Shown: piece by piece, positions 2,022 to 27,790 of the stretch
Layout of the letters: every line of letters starts with the position of its first letter
Numbering within the stretch: the first letter of the stretch is position 1
Source of the DNA: Thermodesulfobacteriota bacterium
GTDB taxonomy: Bacteria; Desulfobacterota; WTBG01; JAGOGO01
Reading direction: 5' to 3'
Length of the DNA: 32,000 nucleotides
NCBI GenBank assembly: GCA_026625185.1
Contig: CP113000.1
Location: forward strand, 240,001 to 272,000
Notes under the pieces: generated by a model
The model's input: only the letters and a program-made list of their open reading frames with translations
What the model was told of the DNA's origin: nothing
The model's database searches: none
Program-made: the position numbers and the translations under genes

Positions 2022-2066
2022 ATGAATTAGGCATACCCAACGTTGGCAAAAATTTAATGAAAGAAA

Positions 2067-2258: not shown

Positions 2259-2297
2259 TTAAAGGAAATTTTAAACACGTAGTTTTAAAAAAACACC

Positions 2298-4349: not shown

Positions 4350-4477
4350 TTTAAAATTTTTCTTTCTTTATCTGTATCAGGGGATATGTTGTTTACTGCT
4401 GTCATCTGCTTTACTCGATCAACAAATCGGTCGGCCTCACCAGGGTTTTGAAACCCGAAAATCTGCAAATTTTTGTC

Positions 4478-4945
4478 CTAATATTCCTGTGAAAGGCGAA
4501 CGTAGCGTTTGTGGTGGCGGCAGATCTTAAGCCAAAAGAAAACGGGGATCGGTCTCAGAAGGGTCCGACGAAATTTCTGCTGAGTTACCGAATTGAGAAA
4601 CCGCTTACCAATGATGCGCTCCTTCAACCGGCATAAAGAGCGGTACAAAAAAACATGCCAAGGGTATTTAAGCAAAATCACAGTGGTAGCGCGGGACAAA
4701 ATAATTTCCTTTATTTTGCTACTGTTATCGTCCATGACCCATGTATTTGTTGCGGTGGCATTCCAAATCAGCATCCTGAACTCGTCGGTTGGTCTTGGTG
4801 TCCGCTTTGGCAAATAATAAATGGCCTCCAATTCGATGTGTTTGACCATCATTATTTTGGCGAGTTTGCGGGCAAAAGTGGTTTTCCCGGAACAAGTCAC
4901 CCCAATGACTACAAGACGTTTCAACTTTTTTTGATCTATTGTCAT
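4478..4945 (-). CDS. P-loop NTPase, adenylate-kinase-like
   Basis: Walker A IGVTCSGKTTFARKLA in the first 30 residues of a 155-aa protein. A 4-nt overlap (ATGA) links it to the upstream ORF. Confidence 0.65.
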   Translation of the reverse strand: MTIDQKKLKRLVVIGVTCSGKTTFARKLAKIMMVKHIELEAIYYLPKRTPRPTDEFRMLIWNATATNTWVMDDNSSKIKEIILSRATTVILLKYPWHVFLYRSLCRLKERIIGKRFLNSVTQQKFRRTLLRPIPVFFWLKICRHHKRYVRLSQEY

Positions 4946-5214
4946 TGGTTATCTTTTTTTTTGTGTCCTTTTTCCAAACCGACTTCAGCGCCACCCAAAA
5001 ATTCGGGTAATTTGAAAGAGATTTTAAATCCGTTATCTAAAAGTCCTTTACCTGCCGTGAGAGTCCCGATGATTTCTTCAAGACAGTGCGGTGGGAGTAT
5101 GACTCCGGAGGAACCTATGGATTCAATAATAATAAGTTCTGCTGGTGTTGAGGGATCATAAAAAGTTTTTTGGGATTGTCCGTTCAGAAGAATAATAGTA
5201 GAAATTATTTTCAT
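4942..5214 (-). CDS. Hypothetical protein (90 aa), translationally coupled to the P-loop gene
   Basis: ORF track. GAAGGAA RBS upstream. The stop overlaps the downstream start by 4 nt. Confidence 0.5.
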   Translation of the reverse strand: MKIISTIILLNGQSQKTFYDPSTPAELIIIESIGSSGVILPPHCLEEIIGTLTAGKGLLDNGFKISFKLPEFLGGAEVGLEKGHKKKDNQ

Positions 5215-5335
5215 TTACGTAAGTTCCTTCTGACAAAGAGCCTTATTTACCTAAAAATGATAAATTTTGAAAGTTAATATATTCACACTACAATTTAAGT
5301 TTTAAGGTGTTTTTTGGCTCATTTTAAGAGCAAAT

Positions 5336-5369
5336 AAAAAGGCCGCTATCTTTCTTCAAGATAGCGGCC
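5336..5369 (-). terminator. Intrinsic terminator (minus strand)
   Basis: Perfect 10-bp stem: ggccgctatc (5341-5350) pairs with gatagcggcc (5360-5369). On the plus strand it is preceded by aaaaa, which is a T-run on the minus strand. Confidence 0.75.
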
Positions 5370-5494
5370 CGACCATCAATCAACCTCCAGAAATGATTAC
5401 CTTTTCTGGACCCTTAAAAATTATTTTTATACATTTTTAAATTTAATACTTTTTTATATATTTTCCCCATTCCCTTGTCAAGTATATATTAACT

Positions 5495-6822
5495 CACTAG
5501 TGTCCGGTTAAGATTGAAATAAATTCAATTGGTTATAATTTGTATTGACCTTGTTTATGTAACTATCAGGCGAAAAGGCCCGTGAAATGGGGATTTTCTC
5601 AAAAAAAATCACGCTTAAAATCTGTAAAATTGTGTAGAGACTAAGGTCTATTTTTAATCTCTTTTTCATTATCGCAACAAGGACATATACTGATATTGCA
5701 ATCCAAATCTGAGTTTTAACGGCATTCTCAGATGTCCCATAAAATGCCTTTATACGCAGATGCTGTTTGATCCATTTAAAGAACAATTCAACGTGCCAAC
5801 GGCATCGATAGAGATCTGCTATAGTCATCGCCGGTAACGTAAACTGATTTGTAAGAAACGTAATTTTCTTGTTTTGCTCTTTGTCAAAATATTTTACCCG
5901 ACGAAGGTTCTCCGGGTAATGTTTTCGAGAATAAAAGCCGCTCGGGGCTATAACTTGATCACATTGAATGCCGGAGCTTTTATCAACCGGCAGAGAATAA
6001 ATCCTTCTAAGGCAAGCATTGGATTTTTCTCTGACGATAAAGGAAGCCGAGTTCTGTTGCAATGCGTAAAGCCTTTCGAAGTCCAGATAGCCGCGGTCCA
6101 TGATATAAATCCCACCTGTTTCTGGAATGAGTTCATCAAGGATATTAACTTCGTGCACCTTGCCGTGCATTATGGCTATAAAAGAGGGGATACTGCCCCT
6201 CAAGTCTAAAAGCGTACGCAGTTTAATGGCGCCCTTACTTTTTCTGAAGCGTGCCCATGGGAATACTGAAAAACATAGATCAATAATTGTTGCATCCAGT
6301 GCATAAACAGTTTCCTGGAGTTGAAGACCAAAGTCCTCATTTATATACAATTGCCTTGCATGGTGAATGAGTACCTGAGCAAAATCGCTATATATACGCC
6401 AATCCCTGGTTTCATTGGCATCTGCCAGGGTACTTTTGGAAACTTTACCTCTGATCCCCATATGGTAGAGCTTCTTTTGTGAGGCACGAAGACAGCATTC
6501 GATGTCCCTTAGGCTTTCTCGATAAGTGAGTTGAGCAAAGGTCATACACAGGAATTGGTCGAAGCATGAAAAATAACGAACCTTATAATTGCCTTGGGAT
6601 CTATCAACGCATTGGCGAAATATTTTCTTGGGTAGAAAATCCATTACTTGAGAGAAAATCGTTTTACCGTGATTCATTTGATGTCTCCTTCTGCTTGTTA
6701 TAATGCAGAAGGAGTATCAATATCATCAGGCTGAATTCAAATCGATCCCCCCAAATTGGCCTATATTTTATGTAATTACAATTTGTTATAAATTTTTTAA
6801 AAATCTTAACCGGACACTAGTG
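5495..6822 (-). mobile_element. Complete IS4-family insertion sequence (about 1.33 kb)
   Basis: Perfect 21-bp terminal inverted repeats: cactagtgtccggttaagatt (5495-5515) and aatcttaaccggacactagtg (6802-6822). They enclose a single DDE transposase ORF. I found no convincing target-site duplication. Confidence 0.9.
5508..6677 (-). CDS. IS4-family DDE transposase (389 aa)
   Basis: DDE contexts YALDATIIDL and IYIMDRGY, plus the IS4 Y-(2)-R-(3)-E-(6)-K signature in YRCRWHVELFFKWIKQ. Confidence 0.9.
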   Translation of the reverse strand: MNHGKTIFSQVMDFLPKKIFRQCVDRSQGNYKVRYFSCFDQFLCMTFAQLTYRESLRDIECCLRASQKKLYHMGIRGKVSKSTLADANETRDWRIYSDFAQVLIHHARQLYINEDFGLQLQETVYALDATIIDLCFSVFPWARFRKSKGAIKLRTLLDLRGSIPSFIAIMHGKVHEVNILDELIPETGGIYIMDRGYLDFERLYALQQNSASFIVREKSNACLRRIYSLPVDKSSGIQCDQVIAPSGFYSRKHYPENLRRVKYFDKEQNKKITFLTNQFTLPAMTIADLYRCRWHVELFFKWIKQHLRIKAFYGTSENAVKTQIWIAISVYVLVAIMKKRLKIDLSLYTILQILSVIFFEKIPISRAFSPDSYINKVNTNYNQLNLFQS

Positions 6823-6951
6823 GGACGGGTAAAATATATTTTTTATCGAGTTTTAAGCGGTGAGGGCCGTTGAATTTGGGGATAAAAATACCTGCTGATT
6901 TTGAGGTAAAAAATCAGACAGGTTTTGTGTTCCCTGAAAAAACCTCCCAGG

Positions 6952-7014
6952 AATTTGTCGCCGATTTCATTAAGTTGTCGCCGTTTTTGTTACAATTTGT
7001 CGCCGATTCTATTA
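6952..7014 (+). repeat. Three contiguous 21-bp direct repeats with core TTGTCGCCG, candidate protein-binding array
   Basis: aatttgtcgccgatttcatta (6952-6972), agttgtcgccgtttttgttac (6973-6993), aatttgtcgccgattctatta (6994-7014). The period is exactly 21 bp. The array ends about 107 bp left of att core copy 2. An inverted partial core (cccgacac) lies at about 7017-7024. Confidence 0.85.
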
Positions 7015-7120
7015 AACCCGACACTTAACCCTAAAATTTAAACCGTAATCCATAGAACTATCCGCAACCAGAAAACAAAAATGGATTAGTGAAAACCGCT
7101 AACCCATTGAAATTACAAGA

Positions 7121-7163
7121 GGCGGCACCCGGATTCGAACCGGGGTATAAAGGTTTTGCAGAA
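7121..7163 (-). repeat. tRNA-Cys(GCA) 3-prime fragment, att core copy 2 (junction of elements 1 and 2)
   Basis: Same 43 nt as 1098-1140 apart from one variable-loop base (7146). It has no 5-prime half and no terminator on its left flank. Confidence 0.75.
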
Positions 7164-13729: not shown

Positions 13730-14134
13730 TTAGGTAGTACTTGCTCTTATAGCTTTTTTTCTGAAGATAAGTATGAGCACACCGAGCACAACAGAAAAGA
13801 TGACTTTCTGAGAATAATACCAAACGGGCAGTCCGTAAGGGATACTACCCACAAGGTAAAAAATTCCGAAAGCTATTAACCAGTATGCGGCAAATATTAA
13901 CATTGCTCCATAGTTGAGGGGATTGCGGGCAAGGATTACAAAAAATAATCCCATCATCCCAACTGTCGCCAGAAATAATCGCAATATAAATACTGTTGTT
14001 GGTTCGGCAGTGGGGGGCTGAATACCAGCCCAGTGGTAGATCTTAGTTATAACTGGCCATGGGAGGGCAGCATAAATAAACCCAAGCAGAAAAGATATGG
14101 CACAAATCCACAGAATAATCTTTAAGCCTTTCAT
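13730..14134 (-). CDS. Integral membrane protein (134 aa, about 4 TM helices)
   Basis: ORF track. GGAGG RBS. Four long hydrophobic stretches. Confidence 0.6.
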   Translation of the reverse strand: MKGLKIILWICAISFLLGFIYAALPWPVITKIYHWAGIQPPTAEPTTVFILRLFLATVGMMGLFFVILARNPLNYGAMLIFAAYWLIAFGIFYLVGSIPYGLPVWYYSQKVIFSVVLGVLILIFRKKAIRASTT

Positions 14135-14241
14135 TTCTCTACCTCCTTTTAATAATTGTTGACAGCCAACAAGACCAAACTATTATATGGTCACATGTTA
14201 GAATTTTTTAGTTGGTTGCTATGAAGAGTGAAGCTTAAAAT

Positions 14242-14280
14242 AAAAAAAGCCTATCACCTTTTATCAGGCAATCCGGCCTT
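14242..14280 (-). terminator. Repeat-family terminator hairpin, copy A (downstream of mcrBC)
   Basis: The minus strand reads GGCC GG ATTGCC TGATAAAA GGTGAT A GGC TTTTTTT. It is homologous to the copies at 23486-23525 and 27448-27488. Confidence 0.75.
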
Positions 14281-14685
14281 CTCTAAACATATTAAAATTT
14301 GAACCCCATTTTCTTGCACCATCTTTTAACGATGCCTCTTTTTGGGTTTGTTATTTCTCCTTTTGATAATACTTTATTTGGAAAAAGTCAAACATTATTA
14401 ATAGATTGGGTTTTAAAATTAAGCAGGGGAAAAAAGGCATTACTTTCTTTCATTTCTCATGATTTTTCTCTGTTTTACCTGAAAAAAACTTAAATACACG
14501 TAAATTTTGATAGATATTTAATACCCAATACTTTAATAAGGCCCTTTCAAAACAGCAAAAGTTTTACTTTTAAACTGAAGAAAAGCCCCTTTTAAGGGTA
14601 GAAAAAAACAGAGGAGGAATATTGGAAGGCCTTAAAGGAGATTCGGTTTTATGTCGGGTTTAATCAAGTGGGGTTAATAGATAAT

Positions 14686-15756
14686 TTATGCAGTGCCTAC
14701 ATTTTGCATCCCTGTATTTAATATTTCCAGCATACTTTTGTGAATCTGCTGCCAGGGTTTATTTAAGTTAATAGTCCTTATCATTAACTTATGGCCGCTC
14801 ATCATGTAGTTAAGGTTAACTTCATTACTTACTGTTGGATAGAGTAATAGCCCGGTGCACTGCCCACTAATGTCATTTTTTGCCTCTATATTTTTCAGGT
14901 ATGCAAATATTTGATATAAATTTTGAGAATGAATTTTTTCCTGATCATAATACTCCGCAAGAGCTTCTTTATAATATTTTGCATCAATAATCATCTTAGT
15001 AGTGTTTGATTTAATGGAAATATCAGTTGTCATTTTGGGCAGGTACGAACCAGAAATTTCATCCAAGGCGGTTACATTCCAGCTAATATCCTCACGCCCC
15101 ACATGATAATAGGGTGCTTCTATGATGTAAAATTTTCGTATAAACTCCTCAAAAAGCCCCGCCATTTGTCGTTCATCGCGTAGAAAGTCGCGAAATTTAC
15201 TTTTGCCTGGTTCTTCAGAAACCAATAAGTTATCATAAACTAATTCACATATTTTCAGTAAAAAATCATAAAATGAGTTGTTTTGATGCAATTGCACACG
15301 GTTAAAAAGTACCCCTGTAAGTTTTATGCCATCAATTTCGTGGAGACGACGATAAAGACCAATGAGCTCATTCTTTAAAGTTTTATCTATAGCTTCAATA
15401 CATATCAATTCCCATATGGTTGATTTTATGATTCGATTATGGAGAATGTTGTGGCTGAGTTCATCATATTCACAATGAACTTGAGCCTTAATTAAAAGAT
15501 TACGTTTTATGGTATGATTAAAACTGAATTTTCCTTTTAATGCGCAGGTATCCTCAGAAAACAATAAATAACCTCTATCCAAGCCCCTTTTAAGTAAATG
15601 GTTCATACCTCCGAGTAATACCTTTGAAAAAAGATCAACAAGGTTTGTCGTATCTATTCCGCTAACATTTACCACATCACGCTCGTCGAGCTTATTCCAA
15701 GCATAACAAAGGAGGTAATAAATGTTTTGTATTGGAATCGTTGTGGCGATGTTCAT
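14686..15756 (-). CDS. mcrC: McrC-like subunit of a type IV (modification-dependent) restriction system (356 aa)
   Basis: The N-terminus IQNIYYLLCYAWNKL is typical of McrC. A C-terminal PD-(D/E)xK-type motif lies around MIIDAKYY. 4-nt overlap with mcrB. Confidence 0.85.
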   Translation of the reverse strand: MNIATTIPIQNIYYLLCYAWNKLDERDVVNVSGIDTTNLVDLFSKVLLGGMNHLLKRGLDRGYLLFSEDTCALKGKFSFNHTIKRNLLIKAQVHCEYDELSHNILHNRIIKSTIWELICIEAIDKTLKNELIGLYRRLHEIDGIKLTGVLFNRVQLHQNNSFYDFLLKICELVYDNLLVSEEPGKSKFRDFLRDERQMAGLFEEFIRKFYIIEAPYYHVGREDISWNVTALDEISGSYLPKMTTDISIKSNTTKMIIDAKYYKEALAEYYDQEKIHSQNLYQIFAYLKNIEAKNDISGQCTGLLLYPTVSNEVNLNYMMSGHKLMIRTINLNKPWQQIHKSMLEILNTGMQNVGTA

Positions 15757-18176
15757 TTTAGGAGAATACTTATTTCATTTTTTACTTTTTCTTGGTTATC
15801 AAACCAATACTCACAGAGCAGTGGTTCTATTTCAGAAACAATAATTTTCTTATACCAATTCTCATCATAAACCGTGCCTGTGTTCATTGGGCAAAAATAA
15901 CTATGACCAATTCTATAGCCGGGACCAAGATTTTTTGTGTCTTCACTTATTTTTTCATTCAACTGGCAAAGTCGTTGGATAATTTTATCTACAAGCTCTA
16001 CAGATACCCCCGAACTTCTTAAATACGTTTTAAATTTATCCCCTTCAAACATTGGTTCAAGGCCAATGAAACTAAATCGCCTTCTCAAAGCATAATCAAC
16101 CATCGCCAATGAGCGATCAGCTGTATTCATTGTTCCAATAATATGAATATTAGAAGGTATCCAAAACTGTTCATCAATTGTTTGTGAATATGTAAGTGGT
16201 AGAGCAAACTCTTTTCCCCTTTTATCGGCTTCAATTAAAAACATCAGCTCACCAAATATTTTACTGAGATTGCCACGGTTAATCTCATCAATAATAAAAA
16301 AATAGGAACTATTCTGGTCGGCCTGTGCAATTTTACAGAACTGGTAAAAAATACCATTCTTGAGCACAAATCCCCCACCATCTGAAGGACGGAAGCCCTG
16401 GATGAAATCCTCATAAGAATACGATTGATGAAACTGAATCATAGCGATTCGGGTTTCGTCTTTTACACCCAGCAAAGAATATGCTAAACGCTTTGCTAAG
16501 AAGGTCTTGCCTACACCTGGAGGGCCTTGAAGAATAATGTTTTTTTTATGCTGAAGTCGATCAAGGATATAGTTTAAGTAGATTTCATCTACAAACAAAT
16601 CTTTAAGAGCATCTGCTGTTGTATATTTAATAGTTGGCGGGTTAAGCGGTGGATTAAGTTCGTCAATAACAGATCGAATAATTTCATATTCAGATTCAGA
16701 AAGTTTGAACAGGCTTCCCTGATTGTTAACAATTGGTTCACATGATTTAAGCTCTTCAATGCCTTGCAACCTGCTTAATTCGACAGGTTGTCTGAATTGT
16801 TCAGTTTTTTCTAACTCAATTTCCTCTCCTCCATCAGATTCATGAAGGCCTTTAGTGATCTTGCACATGCCAACAATAGCTTTATCAGGGGAGGCAATAT
16901 ATCCCAAAACAACATCACCAGGTTTAACAACAGTAAAATGCTTATAAATTCGCCTTTTATTACCTTTTTCATTGTATGATGTATAAGTGATCCGGCCACC
17001 GATATTTAATTCATTAAAACTCCATATCTTGGGATTGGCATTCATCCACCAGTAATTAACCTCACCCGCATCAAACAAGGATTCTAGTGTCTCAAAATCA
17101 TTCTTTTCTAATTTAATAATGGTTCTGCCGAATTTTCCCTGCATATTTTCAGGAATTGGAACTCCTTCATGATTAACCTTGTAGTATTTAACTTTAACAG
17201 TGTGCCTATATTCATTACGATTGGGATTAAATATATATCCACTTAAAACTTCCCCAGCGGCCAAAAGATATTTTCTTCCCTTGTTGGTGATAAATTTATC
17301 ACCCGGTTTTATAGTTAAAAAATGCCAAAGCATTGCAACTGAAGCAGTTAATTCTCCGTCTGTATTATTTGGATAATATTTTTTTATTAAGGCTGTAAGC
17401 TCATCCTTTGATTTCCCAGCGAGGTCAGCGTTGATTTCATCCCAGCCAATCGCAGCAATAGAATTTGAATATAAGTCATCCCATAATCTTGCTTGCTCAC
17501 CTGGAGCAATTTGCCAGTAGCTAATCTGAGAAGGAGGTGGTGTTGGCTCTCCTTTTATTTTATTTACCATATCGATTCCTTCTTTTTCCGCACTGATGGT
17601 GTGTAAGAAAGCGTCAACATTATCCAATGTCATATTTAAATCGGGTCTTAACTGGGGAATTTTATTTAGCAGGGTCAAGACCTTTTCATATATAACACCT
17701 TTTGAATCACCTCTATCACCTGCTTTCCAACCAAGCACATCAAATCCCATTTCCGTTTTATGGTTCCATGCACAATACTTATCGGGATTAAAGTCACTAA
17801 GAAATGCAGTAAGAATACCTCTGCCAAACCCACTGATTTTATAACCACCATTTAATATTTCATTTATCCTTTCTTTAATGTCTATACTTTCATCTAACAA
17901 GTAATAAATTGTTTTTCTAAATTGATTTACATCTCTAATGATTCTATCTCTTTGTATTTTGTTAAGATTTTGTTTGTCGCCTACGTTACTATTAAAATAT
18001 TGCAAATAGCGTTCTTTTAATTCATCATCTTGCATTGCCTTTATCACATTAGGCTGAATCCATTTGTGATTTTCCTCAATTCCTTTTTTTCTTTTTTCTC
18101 CCCATGTCTTCAGCATATTCGATTCATTTATAAACCAGCCTAAAAGTTCCTTTATCTGTTCATCTGTTAACCCCAT
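15753..18176 (-). CDS. mcrB: McrB-like AAA+ GTPase with a long N-terminal extension containing PUA/EVE-like modules (807 aa)
   Basis: Walker A LQGPPGVGKTF, Walker B FFIIDEINRGNLSKIFGELMFLIE and the McrB signature MNTADRSLAMVDYALRRRF. The N-terminal ~500 aa includes YWWMNANPKIW...VKPGDVVLGYIASPDKAIVG (EVE-like) and YWQIAPGEQARLW...IKPGDKF. Confidence 0.9.
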   Translation of the reverse strand: MGLTDEQIKELLGWFINESNMLKTWGEKRKKGIEENHKWIQPNVIKAMQDDELKERYLQYFNSNVGDKQNLNKIQRDRIIRDVNQFRKTIYYLLDESIDIKERINEILNGGYKISGFGRGILTAFLSDFNPDKYCAWNHKTEMGFDVLGWKAGDRGDSKGVIYEKVLTLLNKIPQLRPDLNMTLDNVDAFLHTISAEKEGIDMVNKIKGEPTPPPSQISYWQIAPGEQARLWDDLYSNSIAAIGWDEINADLAGKSKDELTALIKKYYPNNTDGELTASVAMLWHFLTIKPGDKFITNKGRKYLLAAGEVLSGYIFNPNRNEYRHTVKVKYYKVNHEGVPIPENMQGKFGRTIIKLEKNDFETLESLFDAGEVNYWWMNANPKIWSFNELNIGGRITYTSYNEKGNKRRIYKHFTVVKPGDVVLGYIASPDKAIVGMCKITKGLHESDGGEEIELEKTEQFRQPVELSRLQGIEELKSCEPIVNNQGSLFKLSESEYEIIRSVIDELNPPLNPPTIKYTTADALKDLFVDEIYLNYILDRLQHKKNIILQGPPGVGKTFLAKRLAYSLLGVKDETRIAMIQFHQSYSYEDFIQGFRPSDGGGFVLKNGIFYQFCKIAQADQNSSYFFIIDEINRGNLSKIFGELMFLIEADKRGKEFALPLTYSQTIDEQFWIPSNIHIIGTMNTADRSLAMVDYALRRRFSFIGLEPMFEGDKFKTYLRSSGVSVELVDKIIQRLCQLNEKISEDTKNLGPGYRIGHSYFCPMNTGTVYDENWYKKIIVSEIEPLLCEYWFDNQEKVKNEISILLK

Positions 18177-18327
18177 AATAAAATTTCTCCTTACAAAGGT
18201 TTTTACGATTTAACTTTCTAAAAGCATCGCGCGTGATGCGTCACTTTCACTACGGATTGTCTCCCAACCCAGAAACAGGGATTGTCCTCAGTAAATTTTT
18301 TTTCGTCGAAATAGGCGAGATGCATGG

Positions 18328-18405
18328 TTACCCTCTTTCCTCCACAATAGCTATCTCTTCTGGTGTGAGGGCATAGAGGTGATATGCCATTTGGTCAATT
18401 TTCAA
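18328..18405 (-). pseudogene. Remnant of the C-terminal tail of an R-M methyltransferase
   Basis: The minus-strand translation LKIDQMAYHLYALTPEEIAIVEERG-stop matches the widespread Y-x-LY-x-LT-x-EEI-x-IVE tail of type I/IIG/BREX-type methyltransferases. The frame is closed by TAG about 12 codons upstream. Confidence 0.5.
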
Positions 18406-18570
18406 AGGCCAACGGCATGCCGTGCTCCTACATTTTTTCTACCACCTCACCAAGGAACAAAAAGACATTACAAAAATTGGAAATGTTTTTCGATTTTTAC
18501 TCCCAACGCTCCCGATTAGGGATTATATTGGACAATGTCCCTCCAAATCTCCCCTCGATTTCATCATAGA

Positions 18571-21138
18571 TCAGTTCGTCGTTAATTGCTGGCCGAGGAC
18601 AATATCCAATTCTGATCTGAATCCTTTGGCCTCTCCAGCACGTAGTTTGATAAAAAACTTATTGAAGTCCTTCGGCGTTATAAAATTCATTTGATAGACT
18701 ATGTTGAGACCTTCTTCCACTAACCACTTATTGAGCTGATCGAAATGAGCATTGGCATATTCACATTTCTTTTGATTTTCCATCGACGGATCGGCAATTT
18801 CGTTGTCATCTTTTATTTCGATCACAAGAATTGTATTACCCTGCTTCATGAAAAAGTCGGGGCTAAATTCACCGCGTTTTGGATGTTCACCTTTCTTCCA
18901 CGCGTATTCTATTGAATAGAATCTCTGCGGTGCATTCTTCAGCCATCCATCAAGTATCGTTGAATTTTCGCGCTCGCAAAGTAAACGTATAAATTTCCGT
19001 TCCGGTGTGGCATCAGCTATCGCCATGTTACAGGGTGTCTTGAAATCATGGGTATTAGCAATCTTCTCACAACCTGAGCGGTAATCGCCATCCGGGTCAA
19101 TCACCGAATTAAAAAAGTCTTTCTGTTCATCGGGAATCGTCTTCCCGGAATTCTGTGTAAAGAAAACTGTTTTATCACCTCGCCGTAATTCTGCAGCACT
19201 GACACTGATAGCTTGCCGTGAGGATGTCTTCACTGGTTGGAGTCTATTCGGCGTGAGTCGGTAAACAACCCGTTTGGCTGATTTGCGCCTTAATGGCCCT
19301 AAGGCTTGGAGTATCTTCTGACGATTTTCTTCTGCAATTCGTCCGCTTTTTATGCCGGCTTTTTTTGCTGAAGACATCACGATTTCATGGCACCGTTCGA
19401 AGGAGAACTTCTTTGCATACTGTGTCTGGTCCTTTGGATCTTCGGCATCTTTGGACTCCTCATCAATAGACTGTAGTCGTCTGTACATCTGTTCAGCAAC
19501 TTCTACAAAAGAATAAGTCTTGTGTTCAATCTTGGTTTTAAACTTCGTATGTTCACCGCTGACCGCGTGTTCAAACTCAATCGCAACGTCCTCAATTTCC
19601 ACTTGAGAAGGCAGGTCAACAAATCCCTGTTCAAGTAGGCGATACTCACCCTTTTTTGTATAGTGGCGTGTGTCTGTCTCTCGGGTGTAATCCAGATTAT
19701 GCAAGTCGAAATGGTAAGATGAGTCCGCAATGACCGATGAAGAAAGTCGGTTCTCCATTTCCAGAATCTCGTCTACAAGATGGCGAATACGCCCTACCCA
19801 GGCATCATGATTAAACACAGTCACGACAGGGTCCGCACCCTGCCACCTATCAGGACGACGTAAGCCACGCCCGAGAACCTGGGCAATTAAGAGCTTACTA
19901 TTGAAAGCGCGCTCCTCATGCGGAACAATCTGAAAAACATTTTTAACGTCCCAGCCCTCATTGAGCATGGCAACTGATACAATCCACTCAACCTTACTCG
20001 CGGGTTGGTCAACTAACTTAAGCCTTACAATATTTGTCTGGTGTTCCGTTGCTGAACTGACCGCAAGGACCTTTCTTTCCGCGTCATCCGCTGATATTTC
20101 CTCCCACTCCTGCAAGAAAGCCTGCAATTCCTCGGCAACAAGTTTGCAGGTTTTGATATCCTTTGTAACGATTATAGTCAGCGGGCGAATGCCTTGTTTT
20201 TTGAGACGCTTCTTCCAATCTTGGTGTCGATTATAGATCAACTGCCATTTTTCATCCGGGTTATCAGTTTGCGGCATTTCTGCGACATACTCTACCATTT
20301 TGACAAACCGCTCTTCAATTGCCTGACGAAGTGAATATCGGCTGACTACATCCGCAAAATACTCATCCGCGACATAGCAAGTACCTGAAACACCTAACAC
20401 GAAGCGAAAACCGTATTCAGGATTAAGAAGGAACTCTTTCCATTTTTTAATATTTGCCCCAGACTCATTCACAATATGGTGGGCTTCGTCATTGAAAACA
20501 GCCACACGCATGCCCTGTCCGAGAAGACTGTCACGAATCGATGATTTCACATGCTGTAAAATCGCATGGTAATTCTCCACGCAGATTGATTCATTAATAA
20601 TGCTCTCTGAAGCGTTGATGATCTTTGGCGCACGCACTTTTGCATCCGTCGGCAAAAGATCACGCAAATCGGCGTTACTCGCTAAATCTTTAAATTTTGC
20701 CAGCAAACCAGCCTCGATTGTATTGGATGGACAGAGTACAAGGACACGGTCAACTAATCCTTCGGCAAGCATAATAGTGGCAAGTCCGTAAAGCACATAA
20801 CTTTTACCTGTTCCTGTTGCCAAATCTATTGAGCAAGCCAACTGATCTGGCAATTGCAAGTGACGGTCCATGCCCGCCCAGGAACCATATCGCCGCTGAA
20901 TCTCTGCATTTTCATTAAAGTTCTCCTTCGCAAGTTCACGCAAGTTCTTATACTGCGCTCCGGCAAACAAGCGCATAACTAATCGGATTGCATCCTTCTG
21001 GTATTCACGATTACCGCAGAGTTCGTCAATGAATGCTTCATATTTGGACTCATTCCAAACAATAGGGTCTATGTTATCCGAGACCTTCAAAACAAGATCT
21101 TCGTTCTTAAACGTCTGTCTATCTCCCCGCGTCGTCAT
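18571..21138 (-). CDS. res: Type III restriction enzyme Res subunit (SF2 helicase plus C-terminal PD-(D/E)xK nuclease), 855 aa
   Basis: Helicase motif [11 protein letters not shown] and motif II FNDEAHH. C-terminal nuclease-like motif SPDFF...VIEIKDD. ATGA overlap with mod. Confidence 0.8.
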
Positions 21139-23219
21139 TTTTTGCTCCTGCTTTTCTTTTTAGGCTTGATCTCGCCGAACTTCGCCGCGTCAATCAGTAC
21201 CCTCGCCTCGTTGCCGTAGATGTCGAGGAAAACCGCCATCATCTTCTTGCCAAGTTGATCGGTCTGAAAACGCACCTTCCAGCCCACCTTTTCCAATGCT
21301 TCGGCATAGTAGACGGCGTCAAGATCAAAAACCTTGCCTGCATCGTTATAGTCTAAATCGAGCATCACCATCGAAAGGGTTTCCAGGGTGCCTTTCTTTT
21401 TGAACGGCTCACGAACAGCAGCTTCGCTCTTGAAGGTTTCGATCTTGATGAACCCTACTTCAGAGAATTCGCCTTTCGCTTTCTCCGTGCCGGTTTTGTA
21501 TTTTAGTTCCGGTGTGCGGATGAAGTCGAAGCCGACTGCTTCCACGGTGTCATTGACGGCCATCTCGTCTGACGGTTGTTTCAGCGCCGTAAATGCTTGC
21601 CGGTGCAATTCATGAATCATCGAGTAGGGAATCCTAAGCGCATAGTAGCGCACCCTATCCAAGTCAATATAGTCCTGTTGAAAGTCAAAGGCCAGCGCTG
21701 GGGCAACAATGAAGACCTTACTTCCAACTCGAGATCCTGCGGCCTCGTGAATCTCCTCAATCGTTTCTTCGGAAATGCAAGCGCCTTTGTGTTTGGTTTC
21801 CATGTGATTAAAGACCAGGACACTTTGACCTTGTCTATAGCCATCGAATAGGATGCCGCCGATCTTGTGTGGTGCATCACGGCAGCCGAACAGTTGCAAG
21901 GCGAAGAATCGCCAATTTAACCAGGGAAGCTCCTTGAGCGTCGAAAAGTCATATAGCCCAGCGTTGTAAAGCGTGAATGGCTTGGCCTCCAGCTTCGCAC
22001 CCTTGTTGCCGATCTTTTCACGAAGATTGAGCATACGTTTTTGAATAGTGTAAATGGATAGTTTGCCGCAGTCGATGCCTATCCAACGTCGTCCGAGTTT
22101 TTCCGCGACGGCCAATGTTGTTCCTGCTCCTGCAAATGCATCAAGAACTAGGTCGCCGGGATCAGAGGAGGCCTTGATAACTCTTTCAAGCAGAGCTTCG
22201 GGTTTCTGAGTAGGATAGTTCGCATTTTCTGCCGATGCAAATTGCACGGGCGAAATATCACTCCAAATGCTCTGCAAGGGACGACCGTGCCTCTCGTCAA
22301 GATACTGCTTCAGGCGCGGCACTTTGCCGCTCGGGGGCCAGTAAATTTTTCCCTGTTTGTCGAGTTGGTCGAGAGTGCTAATTTTCACTTTCCAATGATT
22401 ACCAAGCCTTGCGGGGTCAACTCCGCGCCACGGTCTTCCCGATTCACCATTTCGCAACCCTCGCGCGGTCAAGTCACCAATGCTGAATACTCGACCATCA
22501 GGATCGTAGTAACGGTAGAACTTTTTGATGTACTCTCGCGAGTATTCGGAATACTGAACATTAAATCGAAGGTTCCCCGTTTTTGTGTAGAAGTAGACGA
22601 CATCATGAATGTGGTTATAGGTATGCGAATCGCTACGCGCCGAAAGCCTTTGCCAGATAATTTCGTTTTGAAAATTCGCCTCGCCGAGCACTTCATCCAA
22701 AATGGTTTTGATGTAGTGACACTTTCGCCAATCAAGATGAACGTAAAGCGCCCCGTTATCTGACAGGAGTTCTCGTATCAGAATCAATCGTTTGCGAAGA
22801 AATTCCAGAAATGATGCGCCTGCAATTTTGTCTTGGTAGGCTTTCTGATCTTCCGTGCCTCGGAAGTCCTGCTTTGTTGCAAAGGGAGGATCAATGTAGA
22901 CAAGCCGAACCCCATCAGAACCATCAGCATTGCGGAGTTGGCCATTGCGCTTCATCTCCAGAAGCGTCTTCATTGCCTGAAGATTGTCACCGAAAATAAG
23001 CATGTTGTGCCAATCAATGCCGTTCAGTCCGAAGGTGCGGCCGGGTTGAAGGGGTACGGCCAGCGTATCTGCAATGATATCTTCTTCGCGATCCTTTCCG
23101 TGGTAAACAAGCTCGTACTCCCGCTTCTCCGGCGGGAACAGAATTCGCGCCCATTCGGGCGAGATGCCTTCCCCTTTTTCGAGTAACCTCGCTAATTCTT
23201 TTCTTTGTTCCGGTGTCAT
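21135..23219 (-). CDS. mod: Type III-like Mod DNA methyltransferase (beta-class N6A/N4C), 694 aa
   Basis: [13 protein letters not shown], motif [12 protein letters not shown], then motif [25 protein letters not shown] in permuted beta order. A long C-terminal extension follows motif I. Confidence 0.8.
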
Positions 23220-23246
23220 GCTGTTTTCCTTTTTTCTTGTACCATT

Positions 23247-23411
23247 CTATTTTCTGATTGTGCCTCCAAACGTAAATGCAATTTCGTCCATCAAGCCATT
23301 ATCCGCAAAACTAAAAGTTTTGTCTTCACCAATTATAAAATGATCCAGTAATTTAACTCCGTTGGGTTTCAACGCGGCAAGAACATCTTCTGTAAAGAGC
23401 CGGTATGCAAC
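23247..23411 (-). pseudogene. 5-prime-truncated RadC-like (JAB/MPN) gene remnant
   Basis: The minus-strand translation VAYRLFTEDVLAALKPNGVKLLDHFIIGEDKTFSFADNGLMDEIAFTFGGTIRK-stop matches the RadC C-terminus (LLDHxIIG...S). TAA/TAG stops lie immediately upstream, and there is no HNHPSG motif. Confidence 0.6.
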
Positions 23412-23485
23412 CTATTAAGACTTTTGTTTTACCCTGTTAATTGGAATTAAAATTTCTATTTTTTTAATGAGAGGAATCTCAAAAC

Positions 23486-23525
23486 AAAAAAGGCCTATCG
23501 CCTTTATATCAGGCAAGGTGGCCTT
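23486..23525 (-). terminator. Repeat-family terminator hairpin, copy B (downstream of the OLD gene)
   Basis: The minus strand reads AGGCC ACC TTGCC TGATATAAA GGCGA TA GGCCT TTTTT. Confidence 0.75.
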
Positions 23526-23939
23526 GTTATATGATCGCAATTTATTAAATATTGATTCCTCGAATACATTTTTTAAACCTATACCCCCGTTTGGGTTTTT
23601 CCTTGATTTATTAAATAAATTTAGGGAAAAGTCAATAATAATGAAGCATTCTGGGAATAAAAAACACCACATTTCTGCGGGTTTTATATGGGGTTTTTTT
23701 TAGGCTTATTCTTTATTAGTTTTATTACATAAAAAGCTGAAAGGAGGGCACATAACATGGTTGAAAAATGGGCAGTAGTTTTTGGATACGACATTGACAA
23801 GGATGAGATTTAGTAAAAACCAAAAAAAGGATACGAGGCATGTAGAAAAAAAACCAAGGGGCAGGTCAGAAGTTGAGACGTAGAAAACACTGGAGCATTT
23901 TCCCGTCGATTCTCAAACGACTTGTTATGCTCAGTTCTT

Positions 23940-25871
23940 TTATGTCATTGTGACCTTTCGGGCATGATTAAGTATTCCCACGCACAATTTTTCCAACAAA
24001 CTTGATTTGATGCCCTCATTCCACATATTTTCCAACGTTGCCGAAATTACTAATGGATTCTTCCGACGAACGCCATCCGACAGGGAGTGCTCTTGCCTCG
24101 CTTTTAACTCAGCATTATCCCACTTCTCTTGGCCAATCTCGGCTACAATCTCATCTTGTATCCGAGTGCACCACATTACCAGTGACTCAGAAAAATAGGT
24201 TGAATCGGGTAAGGGATTAGTTTGAAGGTTACATAGATTCAAAATGCACTGATTATCAGTCTTGTGTCTAAATTTTTCCTCTCCAGTCGCTTTATCACAG
24301 TCACCATCAAAAATAACATATGCAGGAATTCCCAAACCTTTAGCAATGGCCAAAGGCCGACTAAGGTTAGTTTTCCCGCCGCATACAACAAAATGACACC
24401 CGCAGCGTCTAAATTCAGACCATTTACCGCTTAGATGTAAATGAGTTGTTATGAACGCTATATCCTCTGGTCCCTCCACTAATACTGGAATCTGTGAGAA
24501 AAAAAGTTCATTTTGGGAAGGCTGCATGATTTGTTCAACAGCCGCCATTATTGATGTTGGGGACGAAGGATCCCCTCCAAGTGCTTTTGAAAGACTTGAT
24601 GACAGCGTTTGGTAAGTTAGGTGGGTCACAATGGTTTTACCGTCTGGTCCGGCCGACCTTGTCATCCTAACGCCTTCAAATCCTTTTGCAGAGATAAAAT
24701 ATGGACTATGAGTTGTTACTATTATTTGAGCATCACCTTTGGAAAGTTCATCGAGCAATGAAGAGAGGTGGCGTGCTTGTGGAGGGTGCTGGTAAAGTTC
24801 AGGTTCTTCAAACCCAAGTATTAAAGTGGGTTGTTCGCCTTCGTGAGTCGACGATAAAACTTGCAATAGCGCCACAATGAATGATCTTTGCATGCCATGG
24901 CCGACTCTAACCATTTCACCAAGAAAAGCACCTTCTCCAATTTTGGCCCTTGCCATAGGATCCGCTACCGATACCGATTTTGAATCATCATAGTGCCAGA
25001 GTAGTTCGACACGAGCTCCTGGGTGCGACCATGCACGCAGTCTCTCTTGGATGGTCTTCCCGATATCTAGCAATATATCTTGTTGGTCCTTTAATAGTTC
25101 TTGGTATTTCTGCCCCATTTCACGTCGCAGTTCTTCTAAAGGGTCTTTGAAATCAATCTGTGATCTGATAGTCCTTTGTAATAACGTTCCGAGAGCAGTA
25201 TTTTTCCCCTCTTGTTGCTCTTCTGTTGGATCTTTCACTGCTGGAATATAGACCCATTGACAATGCTGCTCAAGTAGATTAGCACCTTTGCTCCAACCAT
25301 AAAACTGATCATTACTCTCAACTGGCTCACAAAGTTTAGGGTGTTCTTCCTCATATTTTCTCAAAGCTTGTTGCATGGCATCTTTTGTTGTAGCCGCATC
25401 GATATCTGAGTATTTTTCACGGATTTCTTGAAAAATGTTCTTTAGATCACTAACTTTCGTACCTTCTTTTTCAGCTCTGAAATATTTTGCGAAGTCTTTT
25501 ATTATCTCTCGTGATCCAAATTGTTGGACTTCGGCTGTTTGCGTTTCTTTGTTCCATTCAGCCCTAGCAGATAAAATGAGTTTGTTTTGCCTAACATAGG
25601 CCTTTAAATCTTCTTTCGCTTTTTCTGAAAGATCAGTAAAAGTCGCTGTAATGGTAATTGGCTGCTCAACCTTTTTTAGATGGAAATCCTCTTCGACCAG
25701 AGTGACAACGTTTGATGCAGCTTGAGTGTTTCTAAAAAGAATATTCAAGGCATTTAGTACGGTTGATTTACCAGAGCCATTTGGTCCCACGAAGCAAGAG
25801 TAATCACCAAAATCTATCGTTTCGTCTTCGAATGAACGGAAATTTTGAATGCGAAGTTGGGAAAGCTTCAT
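23940..25871 (-). CDS. OLD-family ATP-dependent nuclease (ABC-type ATPase plus C-terminal Toprim), 643 aa
   Basis: GGAGG RBS before ATG 25871; the track ORF starts 27 codons upstream. MKLSQLRIQNFRSF, Walker A FVGPNGSGKST, Walker B-like LILGFEEPELYQHP, and Toprim motifs VLVEGPEDIAF and YVIFDGDCD. Confidence 0.85.
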   Translation of the reverse strand: MKLSQLRIQNFRSFEDETIDFGDYSCFVGPNGSGKSTVLNALNILFRNTQAASNVVTLVEEDFHLKKVEQPITITATFTDLSEKAKEDLKAYVRQNKLILSARAEWNKETQTAEVQQFGSREIIKDFAKYFRAEKEGTKVSDLKNIFQEIREKYSDIDAATTKDAMQQALRKYEEEHPKLCEPVESNDQFYGWSKGANLLEQHCQWVYIPAVKDPTEEQQEGKNTALGTLLQRTIRSQIDFKDPLEELRREMGQKYQELLKDQQDILLDIGKTIQERLRAWSHPGARVELLWHYDDSKSVSVADPMARAKIGEGAFLGEMVRVGHGMQRSFIVALLQVLSSTHEGEQPTLILGFEEPELYQHPPQARHLSSLLDELSKGDAQIIVTTHSPYFISAKGFEGVRMTRSAGPDGKTIVTHLTYQTLSSSLSKALGGDPSSPTSIMAAVEQIMQPSQNELFFSQIPVLVEGPEDIAFITTHLHLSGKWSEFRRCGCHFVVCGGKTNLSRPLAIAKGLGIPAYVIFDGDCDKATGEEKFRHKTDNQCILNLCNLQTNPLPDSTYFSESLVMWCTRIQDEIVAEIGQEKWDNAELKARQEHSLSDGVRRKNPLVISATLENMWNEGIKSSLLEKLCVGILNHARKVTMT

Positions 25872-26067
25872 TTCAGAACCTCCGAATCTCAATCGTAATA
25901 AAAAAGAATAACCTTGCGTTTCGATGGTTGTATGCCAAGAGCAACTTTCCAATTACGCAATTTTTGACTAAGATTTCAAAATCAAAAAATTGTGCGCATT
26001 AACAATCGACCGCAAACGGTTTGTTATTTGTTCTTAACATTCTTGCATAAAAGTAGTAGCTGCTTAA

Positions 26068-27303
26068 TTATTCTTCTATTGTTTTATCAGGTAATTGCAG
26101 TAAATCCGTTTGGAGTGATTTACCAGCTATTCCCTTAATTGACCCGAATAGAGCTGAAATATTTTCTTGAACCACCCAGATTTGTTTCTCTCTTTCAGCC
26201 CAAATTTTGTGCATTGATTTTTTCTCTGAATTTAGCTGGTTAATCATGCCTTCATAGTTTTCTACAATTCTTTTTATGTTTTGCACAAATTCATTGCTGG
26301 TAAGGTAGTTGTAAAGTAATTCCATCTTGTCACCTTTGTTTTCTTGCGACAGTTTTACAGAATTGATTTTTATTAACATTTCTCGAAGAACAAAAGATAG
26401 ACTCTTAACTTCGTAAAAACTACAAATCCATACACCGTTTTTTTCTCCGAATCTATCCATATCCACAGGGTAAGTTTCAGTAACAATTACAGCAAGATCA
26501 GCCTTGCAAATAATCTGGTCTTGCTTTAATTTGTCTATCCAATCATTCGCAAAATTTTTAGTACGCTTGCTTTCATAAACTATCAAGCCACATTTATGCT
26601 GATTTGAATTAATAACAATTTGTATTGCATCTGCACCACGGACCCCTTTTGGCACTTCTTCAATTGTGTCAAATGGATAAGTTCGAGATAAAAGATCTTC
26701 AAGCGCCAATTCTTGAACTTCACCCTGAAGTTGCATAGAACCCTGCTCTGCTTTCCGTTTCATCTCTTCAGCTAGTTTCTTGTTGTCTTCAATTTGTTTG
26801 AGGAGTTTTACTTTTTCAAGTTCAAAACTTTCTCTTTCCTTTGCTCGGGCTTTATCTTCAATTTCCTTCTGTCTTTCAAGAAGTTGCTTTTCCATTTGCA
26901 AATTCAGGTCTTCTTGCTTTTCTTTTAACTCTGCTTCTTGTTTTAGAAAGGCAACTTCTTTTTCCTTAAGAGACTTATTTTCAGCTTTTCTTTTTTCATT
27001 CTCTTCTTGAAGAGCTTTTATTTTTTCTTCCACTGATTCAAGCACATTTTTTTCAATCTTCGATTTTTCTTGTTCAAGTTTTTTGGCTAGTTCAGTTTGA
27101 AAAAGTTCACCTTCCTTTTCTCGCTGTTGTTCAAATAACCGTTTTTCTTCTTCAAGCTTTCGTTTTTCCTGATTGAATTTTTCGGCTTGTTCAGCCACCT
27201 TCTTTTCATATTCAGTTTTAAAATGAGCTTCTAGTTTTCCCGAAAGCGCTTCTTCAACATTAAAGCTGTGTCCACAGTTAGGGCATTTGATTTCATTGTT
27301 CAT
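26068..27303 (-). CDS. DUF2130-like protein: N-terminal zinc ribbon, long coiled coil, C-terminal PD-(D/E)xK-like domain (411 aa)
   Basis: MNNEIKCPNCGHSF, then about 180 aa of E/K-rich heptad-like sequence, then GADAIQIV...GLIVYESKRTKNF (a D...ExK pattern). Confidence 0.7.
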   Translation of the reverse strand: MNNEIKCPNCGHSFNVEEALSGKLEAHFKTEYEKKVAEQAEKFNQEKRKLEEEKRLFEQQREKEGELFQTELAKKLEQEKSKIEKNVLESVEEKIKALQEENEKRKAENKSLKEKEVAFLKQEAELKEKQEDLNLQMEKQLLERQKEIEDKARAKERESFELEKVKLLKQIEDNKKLAEEMKRKAEQGSMQLQGEVQELALEDLLSRTYPFDTIEEVPKGVRGADAIQIVINSNQHKCGLIVYESKRTKNFANDWIDKLKQDQIICKADLAVIVTETYPVDMDRFGEKNGVWICSFYEVKSLSFVLREMLIKINSVKLSQENKGDKMELLYNYLTSNEFVQNIKRIVENYEGMINQLNSEKKSMHKIWAEREKQIWVVQENISALFGSIKGIAGKSLQTDLLQLPDKTIEE

Positions 27304-27447
27304 ATTTGATGACCTTTATAAAATGGATATTAACTATTTTGTTTTTTTACACAAAACAATGCTTATATGGTTTCTATATGACACGCTTGACCCTTTACAA
27401 CGCATCGACCGGACTCCGCACTCCTTTACCTTCTTCGCAAAAAAAAT

Positions 27448-27488
27448 AAAAAAAGGCCCATCACCTTTGTATCTGGCAATCCGACCTT
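27448..27488 (-). terminator. Repeat-family terminator hairpin, copy C (downstream of the 650-aa gene)
   Basis: The minus strand reads GGTC GG ATTGCC AGATACAAA GGTGAT G GGCC TTTTTTT. Confidence 0.75.
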
Positions 27489-27750
27489 CTTTGTTCTCTC
27501 AAAATAATAAACCCGCTCTCCTCCGATTATATCATTGAGTTTCCGTTTTTTTTATTCAAAGATGAATTTTCTCATTGAAAACATTAAATCTTAACCTGAT
27601 AAAAATCAACTAAAATTTAGCTCCAGATGTCATTTAAGCAAGCCAAAAATATCTCTTGATTTCCTAAGAGAATAATTATAAAAAGCTTCATTACGACTAA
27701 CCATAGGGAGTAGGGATAATTATGGTGAGCAATCAATTTAAATTTCAATA

Positions 27751-27790
27751 AACCCTTCAAACAGGCCTATCCTGCGAGAGGGGTTTTTTC
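27751..27790 (+). terminator. Plus-strand terminator-like hairpin with no annotated plus-strand gene
   Basis: aacccttc (27751-58) pairs with gaggggtt (27778-85). An inner stem pairs cagg with cctg. The hairpin is followed by a T-run. Confidence 0.45.

Follow-up and report, generated by a model that had tools for sequence, protein, structure and literature searches.

Three interrupted hairpins in a Thermodesulfobacteriota genomic island and the dispersed family of putative small transcription units to which they belong

What are the three similar hairpins that stand between the defence genes of a Thermodesulfobacteriota bacterium? The window analysed here is a stretch of 32,000 nucleotides (contig CP113000.1 of assembly GCA_026625185.1, positions 240,001 to 272,000), and the hairpins, referred to as elements A, B and C, lie on its minus strand past mcrC, an OLD gene and a gene for a 650-aa protein. 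A first-pass annotation regarded them as marks of defence-module boundaries and suggested that they act as portable terminators or as recombination joints. The explanation favoured here, with a probability of roughly 0.55, is that they are members of a lineage-specific family of small, autonomous transcription units, in which the conserved module is an intrinsic terminator that works in one direction. The family is a general form of genome punctuation that often coincides with gene-order breakpoints, and not a device of defence islands.

A repeat search of the window returned a sole three-copy family, D1, of about 48 nt (14236-14283, 23481-23528 and 27444-27491). The degenerate core TTGCCWGATA(N)AAAGGYGATRGGC has three exact matches, all on the minus strand, and none in 100 dinucleotide shuffles, and pairwise local alignments of A, B and C score 42-67 against a null of 22 +/- 2.5. 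An 80-member profile, run with filters off, recovers the three copies at E = 1e-16 to 6e-14 and finds no fourth in the window (next best E = 0.06). Minus-strand folding energies are -19.9 kcal/mol for A (z = -4.6), -16.8 for B (z = -3.0) and -15.2 for C (z = -3.0), with 6-7 U directly after each hairpin; A and C do not fold on the plus strand (z = -0.9 and +0.6). The first-pass claim of three homologous minus-strand hairpins with a T-run is thus confirmed. Its observation that pairing is kept between copies can also be retained, in that the difference between G-U (A and C) and G-C (B) is real, but it concerns one side of the pair only. The flank homology that it described between A and B is significant with the core masked (score 59 against 30 +/- 4.4, reached by 0 of 300 shuffles), whereas A against C and B against C are not. 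The hairpin of A lies 401 bp from the mcrC stop codon, that of B 415 bp from the stop of the OLD gene and that of C 395 bp from the stop of the 650-aa gene, in agreement with the 390-450 bp first given.

Alignment of the upstream sequence of family copies, most of them from other contigs (L-numbered loci such as L007, L016 and L101), reveals a longer unit that has the hairpin as its 3' end. Of 79 distinct copies, about 45 have a TTGAC(T/A), a 17-nt spacer and TAAAAR, TAATAA or TATCAA; the TTGAC starts 109-135 nt ahead of the hairpin core, and the box spans sub-families with differing bodies. Between box and hairpin lies a body of ~85-95 nt that is poorly conserved and non-coding. A profile of this 5' part matches element A at 14338-14439 (E = 1.7e-6) and element B at 23554-23675 (E = 6e-17) and does not detect the box of element C. 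The predicted transcript of A folds at -35.1 kcal/mol (z = -4.6). Several sub-families can be recognized by their bodies. Sub-family I reads ...ATAATCGCAG...ATGGGTGTCACTGAGGAAGGGACTTCCATGAGTGATGAG, sub-family II, without a box, comes immediately after a tRNA-Leu gene, sub-family III carries AAACCCAAACGGGGG...GATGGTTTCGAGGAAACAATATTTAAT and counts element B among its members, and sub-families IV and VII are marked by GGAGGACAGAGAGACTCCATGATG and GGGATGGTTGCGAGGAAAAAG. Element A is a diverged relative of sub-family III, and the body of element C resembles sub-family IV and L092 (compared with L092, L009 and L027). Since they fall into different sub-families, A, B and C are old paralogues and not recent duplicates. 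Sub-family III sequence is conserved to about -200, and CCGCAGAAATGCGGGG with a T-run is found upstream of other copies of it much as a terminator-like hairpin is found upstream of B (Table 1). That hairpin belongs to the conserved sub-family III unit and is predicted to close the OLD gene transcript. The 650-aa gene likewise has its own terminator-like hairpin at ~27750-27790 (z = -2.5); the equivalent candidate for mcrC is weak.

How widespread is the family? Among 185,579 species, each represented by one genome, a search for the exact pattern gave 14 matches. Twelve are genuine and occur in three metagenome-assembled genomes (MAGs) labelled 'delta proteobacterium' or Thermodesulfobacteriota; matches in Hyphomicrobiales and Tannerellaceae have no flanking GGCC or U-run and are due to chance. 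The best-sampled MAG has 8 exact matches on 6 contigs, to which a profile search adds a ninth, for at least 9 copies. A relaxed-pattern scan of metagenomes found at least 80 loci in freshwater-sediment, wetland and peat samples, and at least 85 distinct copies were collected overall. Because only 36 of 70 relaxed-pattern metagenome copies would be caught by the strict pattern, a genome probably holds 10-20 copies, not hundreds. Rfam 15 contains no family that matches the window elements or 22 related loci at gathering or permissive E-value thresholds, and literature searches returned general analogues only and no described equivalent. A phage origin was considered and dropped, as the one match in a scan of viral contigs has neither the flanking GGCC nor the U-run and is a chance match. 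A remnant of a tRNA or transfer-messenger RNA (tmRNA) can be set aside too: ARAGORN finds neither gene in the window, and the tRNA-Cys fragments described below, which are its only repeats derived from a tRNA, are unrelated to the hairpins. Nor are the elements tandem attachment-site (att) duplicates of the tRNA/tmRNA type, for all three have 5' parts and belong to different sub-families, and the att sites of the island are the tRNA-Cys fragments at 7120-7161 and 1097-1138.

The neighbours of the units are diverse, and no single gene family dominates. Housekeeping and metabolic neighbours include pgk-tpiA-secG-tRNA-Leu, mscL, argS, ssb and genes for thiolase, aldehyde:ferredoxin oxidoreductase, peptidase S58, GGDEF and redoxin proteins. 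Mobile, toxin-antitoxin and defence neighbours include PIN, ParE, AbiEii, Gp49, ORF6N, RhuM-like, DUF4143 ATPase, Mrr_N, Eco57I, Schlafen-type helicase and transposase genes. With redundancy removed, the nearest downstream gene is co-oriented with the unit in 53 of 59 contexts (90%) and the nearest upstream gene in 37 of 55 (67%; Fisher p = 0.005). For one third of the copies, a role as terminator of the gene before is excluded by that gene's orientation, and since co-orientation is higher downstream than upstream, the unit is directionally tied to the gene after it. These results bear on several of the earlier suggestions. The idea of unusually long non-coding tails on the upstream genes does not survive: the genes upstream of B and C have hairpins of their own (weak for A), about 45 of 79 copies have their own box, and orientation follows the downstream gene. 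The stretches of ~400 bp that follow mcrC, the OLD gene and the 650-aa gene as apparent 'tails' are better viewed as separate small units and not as 3' untranslated regions. The idea of portable terminator units is borne out by the strand-specific terminator form and the many unrelated contexts, but the units are not specific to islands or defence and have housekeeping neighbours. The proposed check for a genome-wide distribution, as opposed to one at boundaries only, turned up copies at unrelated loci and on 6 contigs of one MAG. Hundreds of copies at ordinary genes, which were to mark the element as a generic terminator, were half found: ordinary genes are indeed among the neighbours, but there are some ten or more copies per genome.

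Taken together, the units could work as follows. The sigma-70-like -35 (TTGACT) and the A/T-rich -10 would start transcription of the unit on the minus strand, and the interrupted hairpin with its U-run would end it, in one direction only. Each unit would also halt transcription arriving from the upstream module, namely mcrBC for A, OLD plus DUF2130 for B and the 650-aa gene for C. A short RNA would then be made ahead of the next co-oriented operon: the 134-aa gene and M50 peptidase for A, the radC remnant with type III restriction-modification (R-M) and mcrBC for B, and DUF2130 with OLD for C. Placed between operons in this way, the units would punctuate and insulate the modules of the island, and the RNA may function as a trans-acting small RNA (sRNA), a leader or an insulator. 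Scattered similar copies might in addition supply stretches of homology at which gene order tends to break.

The structural evidence deserves a closer look. Standard pairs account for 93% of cells across 80 distinct hairpins, and the hairpin, which runs GGAUUGCC...GAUAAA...GGUGAUG, is by far the most conserved segment of the unit, with a stem broken by an internal loop of 2-3 nt and a bulge of 1 nt. In the free stem columns (12, 13, 40 and 41), C or U stands opposite G in at least 97% of copies, and because the tandem U-G/G-U pairs are conserved, the fold exists on the minus strand only. A strand-limited fold fits an RNA hairpin or a single-stranded DNA hairpin of the minus strand and is no proof of selection on structure. 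Stem variation is almost all one-sided (between G-C and G-U, or from A-U to G-U), and the single double change is no better than in shuffles.

Several observations count against an autonomous transcription unit. Compensatory covariation is absent from hairpin and body by pair counting and by RNAalifold; for 21 sub-family I sequences the latter predicts the terminator alone, with 0 compensatory pairs and no consensus structure upstream. The invariance of many hairpin columns is uninformative, because the search patterns fixed them. An apparent covariation by eye between a body segment and the 3' half of the terminator (GAGUGAU and AGGUGAU) was dropped, as the U/C states do not track across copies. 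The -10 hexamers (TAAAAG, TAAAAA, TAATAA and TATCAA) have no canonical final T, and a scan for sigma-70 consensus promoters did not call the boxes. In element B, the -35, the -10 and the first transcribed bases fall within an imperfect 22-nt palindrome (23591-23635, 77% complementary, arms 1 nt apart), and the palindrome around the sub-family III box could be a protein-binding site or operator instead. 'Promoter' is therefore a predicted role, given the non-canonical -10, the negative scan and the palindrome that encloses the B box. About 40% of copies have no box, and some of these stand directly after a tRNA-Leu or ORF6N gene. For example, in L007, L039, L046, L048 and L086 one sub-family follows tRNA-Leu downstream of pgk-tpiA-secG with no promoter box, and the DNA just after the U-run differs in every contig; this sub-family would be a tRNA 3' trailer that ends at the family terminator. 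Free-standing sRNA genes do not usually show a downstream co-orientation of 90%, which suggests a role in cis. Finally, the copy number per genome rests on one incomplete MAG.

Table 1 Positions of the elements and associated features in the 32,000-nt window
Feature	Position	Strand	Details
Element A, interrupted hairpin	14241-14285	-	Outer stem AAGGCC/GGC(U)UU, inner stem AUUGCCU/AGGUGAU; U-run 14242-14248
Element A, promoter-like box	14363-14391	-	TTGACT 14391-14386, 17-nt spacer, TATCAA 14368-14363
Element A, predicted transcript, ~117 nt	14356->14240	-	Body with GAUGGUGCAAGAAAAUGGGG; 5' end predicted from promoter-like box
Element B, interrupted hairpin	23490-23525	-	U-run 23486-23491; also listed as terminator-like by the terminator scan
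Element B, promoter-like box	23607-23635	-	TTGACT 23635-23630, then TAATAA/AATAAA 23613-23607
Element B, predicted transcript, ~117 nt	23600->23484	-	Sub-family III (AAACCCAAACGGGGG ... AUUCGAGGAAUC ...); aligned with L017, L030, L034, L044, L065, L094 and others
Terminator-like hairpin upstream of B	23667-23680	-	CCGCAGAAAUGUGG then U-run; z = -3.3
radC remnant without 5' end	23247-23405	-	Last ~52 codons and stop; Pfam RadC positions 87-121 of 121, E = 1.1e-6
Element C, interrupted hairpin	27449-27492	-	U-run 27448-27454
Element C, promoter-like box (weaker)	27581-27609	-	TTGATT 27609-27604, 17-nt spacer, TAATGT 27586-27581; from sequence and place in alignment
Element C, predicted transcript, ~129 nt	27574->27446	-	Body ACGGAAACUCA..GGAGGAGAG; z = -2.6
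Tyrosine recombinase gene, 209 aa	30233-30862	+	Catalytic domain only
Tyrosine recombinase gene, 394 aa	30881-32065 (past the right end of the window)	+	

Gene order around the units is a further source of information. Co-oriented unit-gene(s)-unit arrays are present in L016, L078, L092, L085, L049, L021, L035 and L107; L016 has three units within 6.4 kb and a fourth on the same contig. The copies in an array are all direct repeats, never inverted pairs. Neighbouring modules occur in different combinations (c49 and c50 are unidentified ORF families obtained by clustering of open reading frames, ORFs): c49, unit, RhuM-like, c50 in L030; c49, ORF6N, unit, MazG-like in L029 and L090; RhuM-like, unit, MazG-like in L094; and ORF6N, unit, DUF4143 ATPase in L059. 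In pairwise alignments, shared sequence stops at the 3' edge of the unit, +30 to +36 from the core and right after the U-run, as at the tRNA-Leu locus in five contigs, in L016/L029 and in L033/L100. Others, counted from the hairpin core, fall at about -200 or -126 on the 5' edge, or at -30 to -50 in a central motif (ATGGTTTCGAGGAAAC; GAGGAA), the latter as in L050, ORF6N-containing copies and L034. In L029 and L016 the promoter box is separated from the 3' half of the unit by an ORF6N gene. One apparent break inside a unit of L016 is instead the insertion of a MITE (a miniature transposable element of the inverted-repeat type) with ends CCCCGTTAGAA...TTCTAACGGGG; the MITE-like element (L012, L017 and L016 at ~1960-1990, oriented) lies just upstream of the -35 in two units and inside the body of a third. 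Thus the suggestion of recombination joints stands in part, since modules are combined differently and breaks fall at or inside units on other contigs, but A, B and C are old paralogues and not the duplicates of a swap.

The bias towards a co-oriented downstream gene would be expected if the unit were a cis-acting 5' leader or attenuator, in which a ribosome on a mini-ORF covers the 5' strand of the terminator stem and so allows bypass, a principle like that of the translation-coupled attenuation of pyrBI. This reading is doubtful, yet it has more than orientation in its favour. Six downstream ORFs (those identified are RhuM-like, MazG-like, protease-like and ORF6N) begin within ~60 nt of the U-run, which leaves no room for a separate promoter, and the ORF6N genes of L029 and L016 lie between promoter and terminator. 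Almost all sub-families have a purine-rich GAGGAA-type motif, often with an AUG after it, and 50 of 81 copies carry a Shine-Dalgarno-like motif plus ATG 21-35 nt ahead of the hairpin, where shuffles give 16.7 +/- 3.7, a control that overstates significance because the copies are related. The mini-ORFs end just before or inside the hairpin; however, they differ among copies in frame and length, and in 13 of 50 the RNA ends before any stop is reached. For the same reasons a small protein made from the body (MV(S/A/T)RK... peptides) was rejected. Also against a leader, riboswitch-type leaders show the opposite of a conserved terminator with a variable body, and RNAalifold reveals no conserved antiterminator in sub-family I. 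The next gene is at a median distance of 175 nt from the unit, the functions of the downstream genes are unrelated to one another, and the 134-aa gene keeps its own 5' region with and without the element. A plain dispersed terminator, or palindrome of the repetitive extragenic palindromic (REP) type, that stabilizes the 3' end of an mRNA and has no transcript of its own, the upstream homology being hitch-hiking, seems still harder to uphold and is rated unlikely. It would explain why the hairpin is the most conserved segment and has the form of a terminator, and why some copies directly follow a gene or tRNA with no box; moreover, an IS200-like Y1 transposase gene of the REP-associated tyrosine transposase (RAYT) type adjoins the unit in L045, L076 and L047. 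These Y1 genes have no inverted partner hairpin, however, even with 4 mismatches allowed, and array copies are direct with ~10-20 per genome. In one third of contexts the upstream gene points away, the upstream genes end in separate terminator-like hairpins (clear for B and C, weak for A), and most copies have the TTGAC box at a fixed distance, none of which suits a mere 3' end.

Could the units instead be attachment or junction sites of a cassette-type shuffling system, integron-like or similar to NIME/dRS3 repeats, with one-way insertion by a site-specific recombinase? The co-oriented arrays in eight contigs, the differently combined ORF6N, RhuM-like, DUF4143 ATPase and MazG-like modules, and the breakpoints at -200, -126, +35 and the central ATGGTTTCGAGGAAAC motif all speak for it, as do the foreign modules of differing GC content beside lineage-specific elements and the integrase genes divergent from the array. 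It is nevertheless improbable. These integrases are generic tyrosine recombinases that form part of the tRNA-Cys island, two module boundaries of the window have no element, and many copies are at stable housekeeping loci. A dedicated recombinase is counted against because recombinase genes are not among the common neighbours of units, one breakpoint is a MITE, and a 1.2-kb insertion right after the U-run in L048 relative to L007 has no direct repeats or duplicated core. Equally improbable is the more specific idea that the units are landing pads of a lineage-native gene-cassette system, in which foreign accessory and defence genes are placed one way into, or right behind, a shell of promoter and mini-ORF-gated terminator; if true, this would give unit-cassette-unit arrays expressed by translation-dependent read-through, an integron analogue without IntI or attC. 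Least credible of all is that the conserved stretch is or recently was protein-coding (frame ...K-A-G-L-P-D-I-K-V-M-G-L-F...), a gene-end remnant duplicated with modules. One gene caller does place an 85-aa ORF over copy B (23415-23672), and the variable positions of the hairpin (CCN, GAN, ATN, GGN) show a period of three, but these positions are also unpaired or wobble in the hairpin, gene callers disagree on strand and frame, and upstream frames vary by sub-family. A coding hairpin was rejected on the grounds that the loops GATATAAAGG, GATAAAAGG and GAAAAAGG differ by 1-2 nt, which shifts the frame, and that the frame enters the U-run without a stop. Spurious ORFs across units, such as that at 23415-23672, are better dropped from annotation.

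The setting of the elements can now be described. A tRNA-Cys(GCA) gene lies beside tRNA-Gly 1.16 kb past the right end of the window (L101 12930-13003), and the 42 nt at its 3' end are repeated on the minus strand, identically at 7120-7161 and with a single mismatch at 1097-1138. On the basis of this gene and its recurring 3' end, 7162 to ~33161 is a 26-kb island integrated at tRNA-Cys, and 1139-7119 looks like an older, degraded second insertion with an IS4-family transposase (5508-6677). Elements A, B and C and all defence genes are inside the cargo of the same island. Its two tandem recombinase genes, near the tRNA and divergent from the defence genes, are generic and Xer-like; against the integron-integrase model TIGR02249 the 394-aa protein scores 27 bits (cut-off 265) and the 209-aa protein gives no match. 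A module of primase, DUF3854 and HTH_17 genes occupies the far end of the segment. The cargo is a GC mosaic of five modules (mcrBC 0.35, type III R-M 0.45-0.50, OLD 0.43, DUF2130 0.35, 650-aa gene 0.48). As for the claim that the elements mark defence-module boundaries, two GC steps, near 23.3 kb and 27.6 kb, do coincide with elements, but the GC-defined mcrB/res (18177-18570) and OLD/DUF2130 (25953-26067) junctions have none, and the 394-bp gap at 18177-18570 has no similarity to element tails. The truncated radC gene noted near copy B is real and ends ~80 bp downstream of it; from the match to the RadC C-terminus and the GC step, this remnant marks a true junction at which the OLD/DUF2130 segment meets the type III R-M segment. 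Module exchange in related islands, also suggested at first, is not documented for this one, because every contig with these genes has the identical order and no alternative arrangement was found.

Two of the modules show that an element does not travel with a gene. The DUF2130 gene (26068-27303) has homologues 79-93% identical in MAGs that bear the labels Bacteroidetes, Tissierellales, Omnitrophota, KSB1, WOR-3 and Smithella; their contexts are unrelated, with no element nearby and no OLD partner. Such identity indicates, as far as sequence comparison goes, a very recent transfer between phyla, and since the homologues have no element nearby, the elements belong to the host lineage and not to imported genes. 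The gene for the 134-aa membrane protein (13730-14134) is 'floating', with 81 homologues and no conserved gene order. It keeps its own conserved 5' region (GTTATA..GAAACCATATAAACAATAGT..GAAGGAGGTG) whether or not an element is upstream, and an element is upstream in three lineages only, those of the window, L107 and L120. Flanks of this gene with and without the element are not alignable, and no empty site was recovered. Between the 134-aa gene and element A is the best match to the sigma-70 consensus in the region, TTGACA-16-TATTAT (11/12) at 14159-14186 on the plus strand; it points into element A and could yield an RNA antisense to it. Three further observations were made towards the left end of the window. 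At 6952-7015, ~100 bp away from the 7120 tRNA-Cys fragment, three tandem 20-22-nt repeats (AATTTGTCGCCGATTTCATTAA) look like iterons or arm sites for a recombinase. The minus strand has at 5359-5413 a match to the nhaA-I (Na+-responsive) riboswitch whose 44.9 bits exceed the gathering threshold; small unannotated ORFs follow it, with no obvious antiporter. A 118-aa ORF (1665-2021) is preceded at 1488-1657 by a tandem pair of direct repeats, ~96-100 nt long and 83-89% identical.

What, then, is gained by recognizing the family? It is apparently an undescribed intergenic family, a candidate family of sRNAs or leaders for metatranscriptomics and a marker for an uncultured clade of sediment Thermodesulfobacteriota. 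Its units are also a concrete place in which to study how foreign defence and toxin-antitoxin genes are slotted into genomes. It should be kept in mind that the family is not defence-specific, that no new mechanism is shown and that its kind is a familiar one, as a comparison with known systems illustrates.

Among dispersed repeats, the Correia and NIME/dRS3 repeats of Neisseria are 50-156 bp long, often upstream of genes and able to affect expression; NIME/dRS3 arrays adjoin variable genes and have been proposed as recombination substrates, and minimal mobile elements carry R-M genes (PMC1797815). The units share with them the dispersed intergenic location and the arrays beside variable genes. 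However, they number about ten or more copies per genome and not hundreds, contain an intrinsic terminator, have no dRS3-like 20-bp repeat and belong to another phylum; the alignment reveals no inverted repeats in common at either edge of the unit (about -200 and +35), and an inverted-repeat search of the three window units gives matches of A/T-runs only. With REP, BIME and REPIN-RAYT elements the hairpin shares an imperfect extragenic palindrome with conserved unpaired bases, but the copies are few, the arrays direct and no RAYT is consistently linked, and the hairpin is part of a unit of ~120-250 nt. Integron attC arrays, too, are strand-specific imperfect hairpins between co-oriented accessory or defence genes with a divergent integrase gene. 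Unlike them, the units have a U-run and a promoter box, separate multi-gene modules with their own terminators, occur at housekeeping loci as well and are not accompanied by IntI; the attC R''/R' GTTRRRY core is absent, the base of the hairpin reading AAGGCC...GGCCUUUUUU.

Regulatory RNAs offer another set of parallels. Like riboswitches and leaders, the units lie in the 5' region of a co-oriented gene (53 of 59), but a conserved sensor domain with alternative folds was not found, the body being variable and matching nothing in Rfam. Sibling or multicopy sRNA families include LhrC1-5 of Listeria, NgncR_162/163 of Neisseria and the CsrB copies. As in these, there are several paralogous units of ~110-130 nt per genome with a promoter-like box and a terminator, some in tandem; by contrast, the unit is conserved in the terminator and not in a seed or loop, shows no covariation and is strongly tied in orientation to the downstream gene. 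The 3'ETS-leuZ of Escherichia coli is an sRNA derived from a tRNA 3' external transcribed spacer (ETS). The tRNA-Leu sub-family resembles it in starting after the tRNA, having no box and ending at the family terminator, but the likeness is limited to this sub-family and the window copies are free-standing. The closing module itself is built like an intrinsic terminator, a G+C-containing hairpin followed by 6-7 U, with G-U pairs that make the fold one-directional. Ordinary terminators are not sequence families, however, whereas in these units the bases of the loop, bulge and internal loop are conserved over dozens of unrelated loci and several species.

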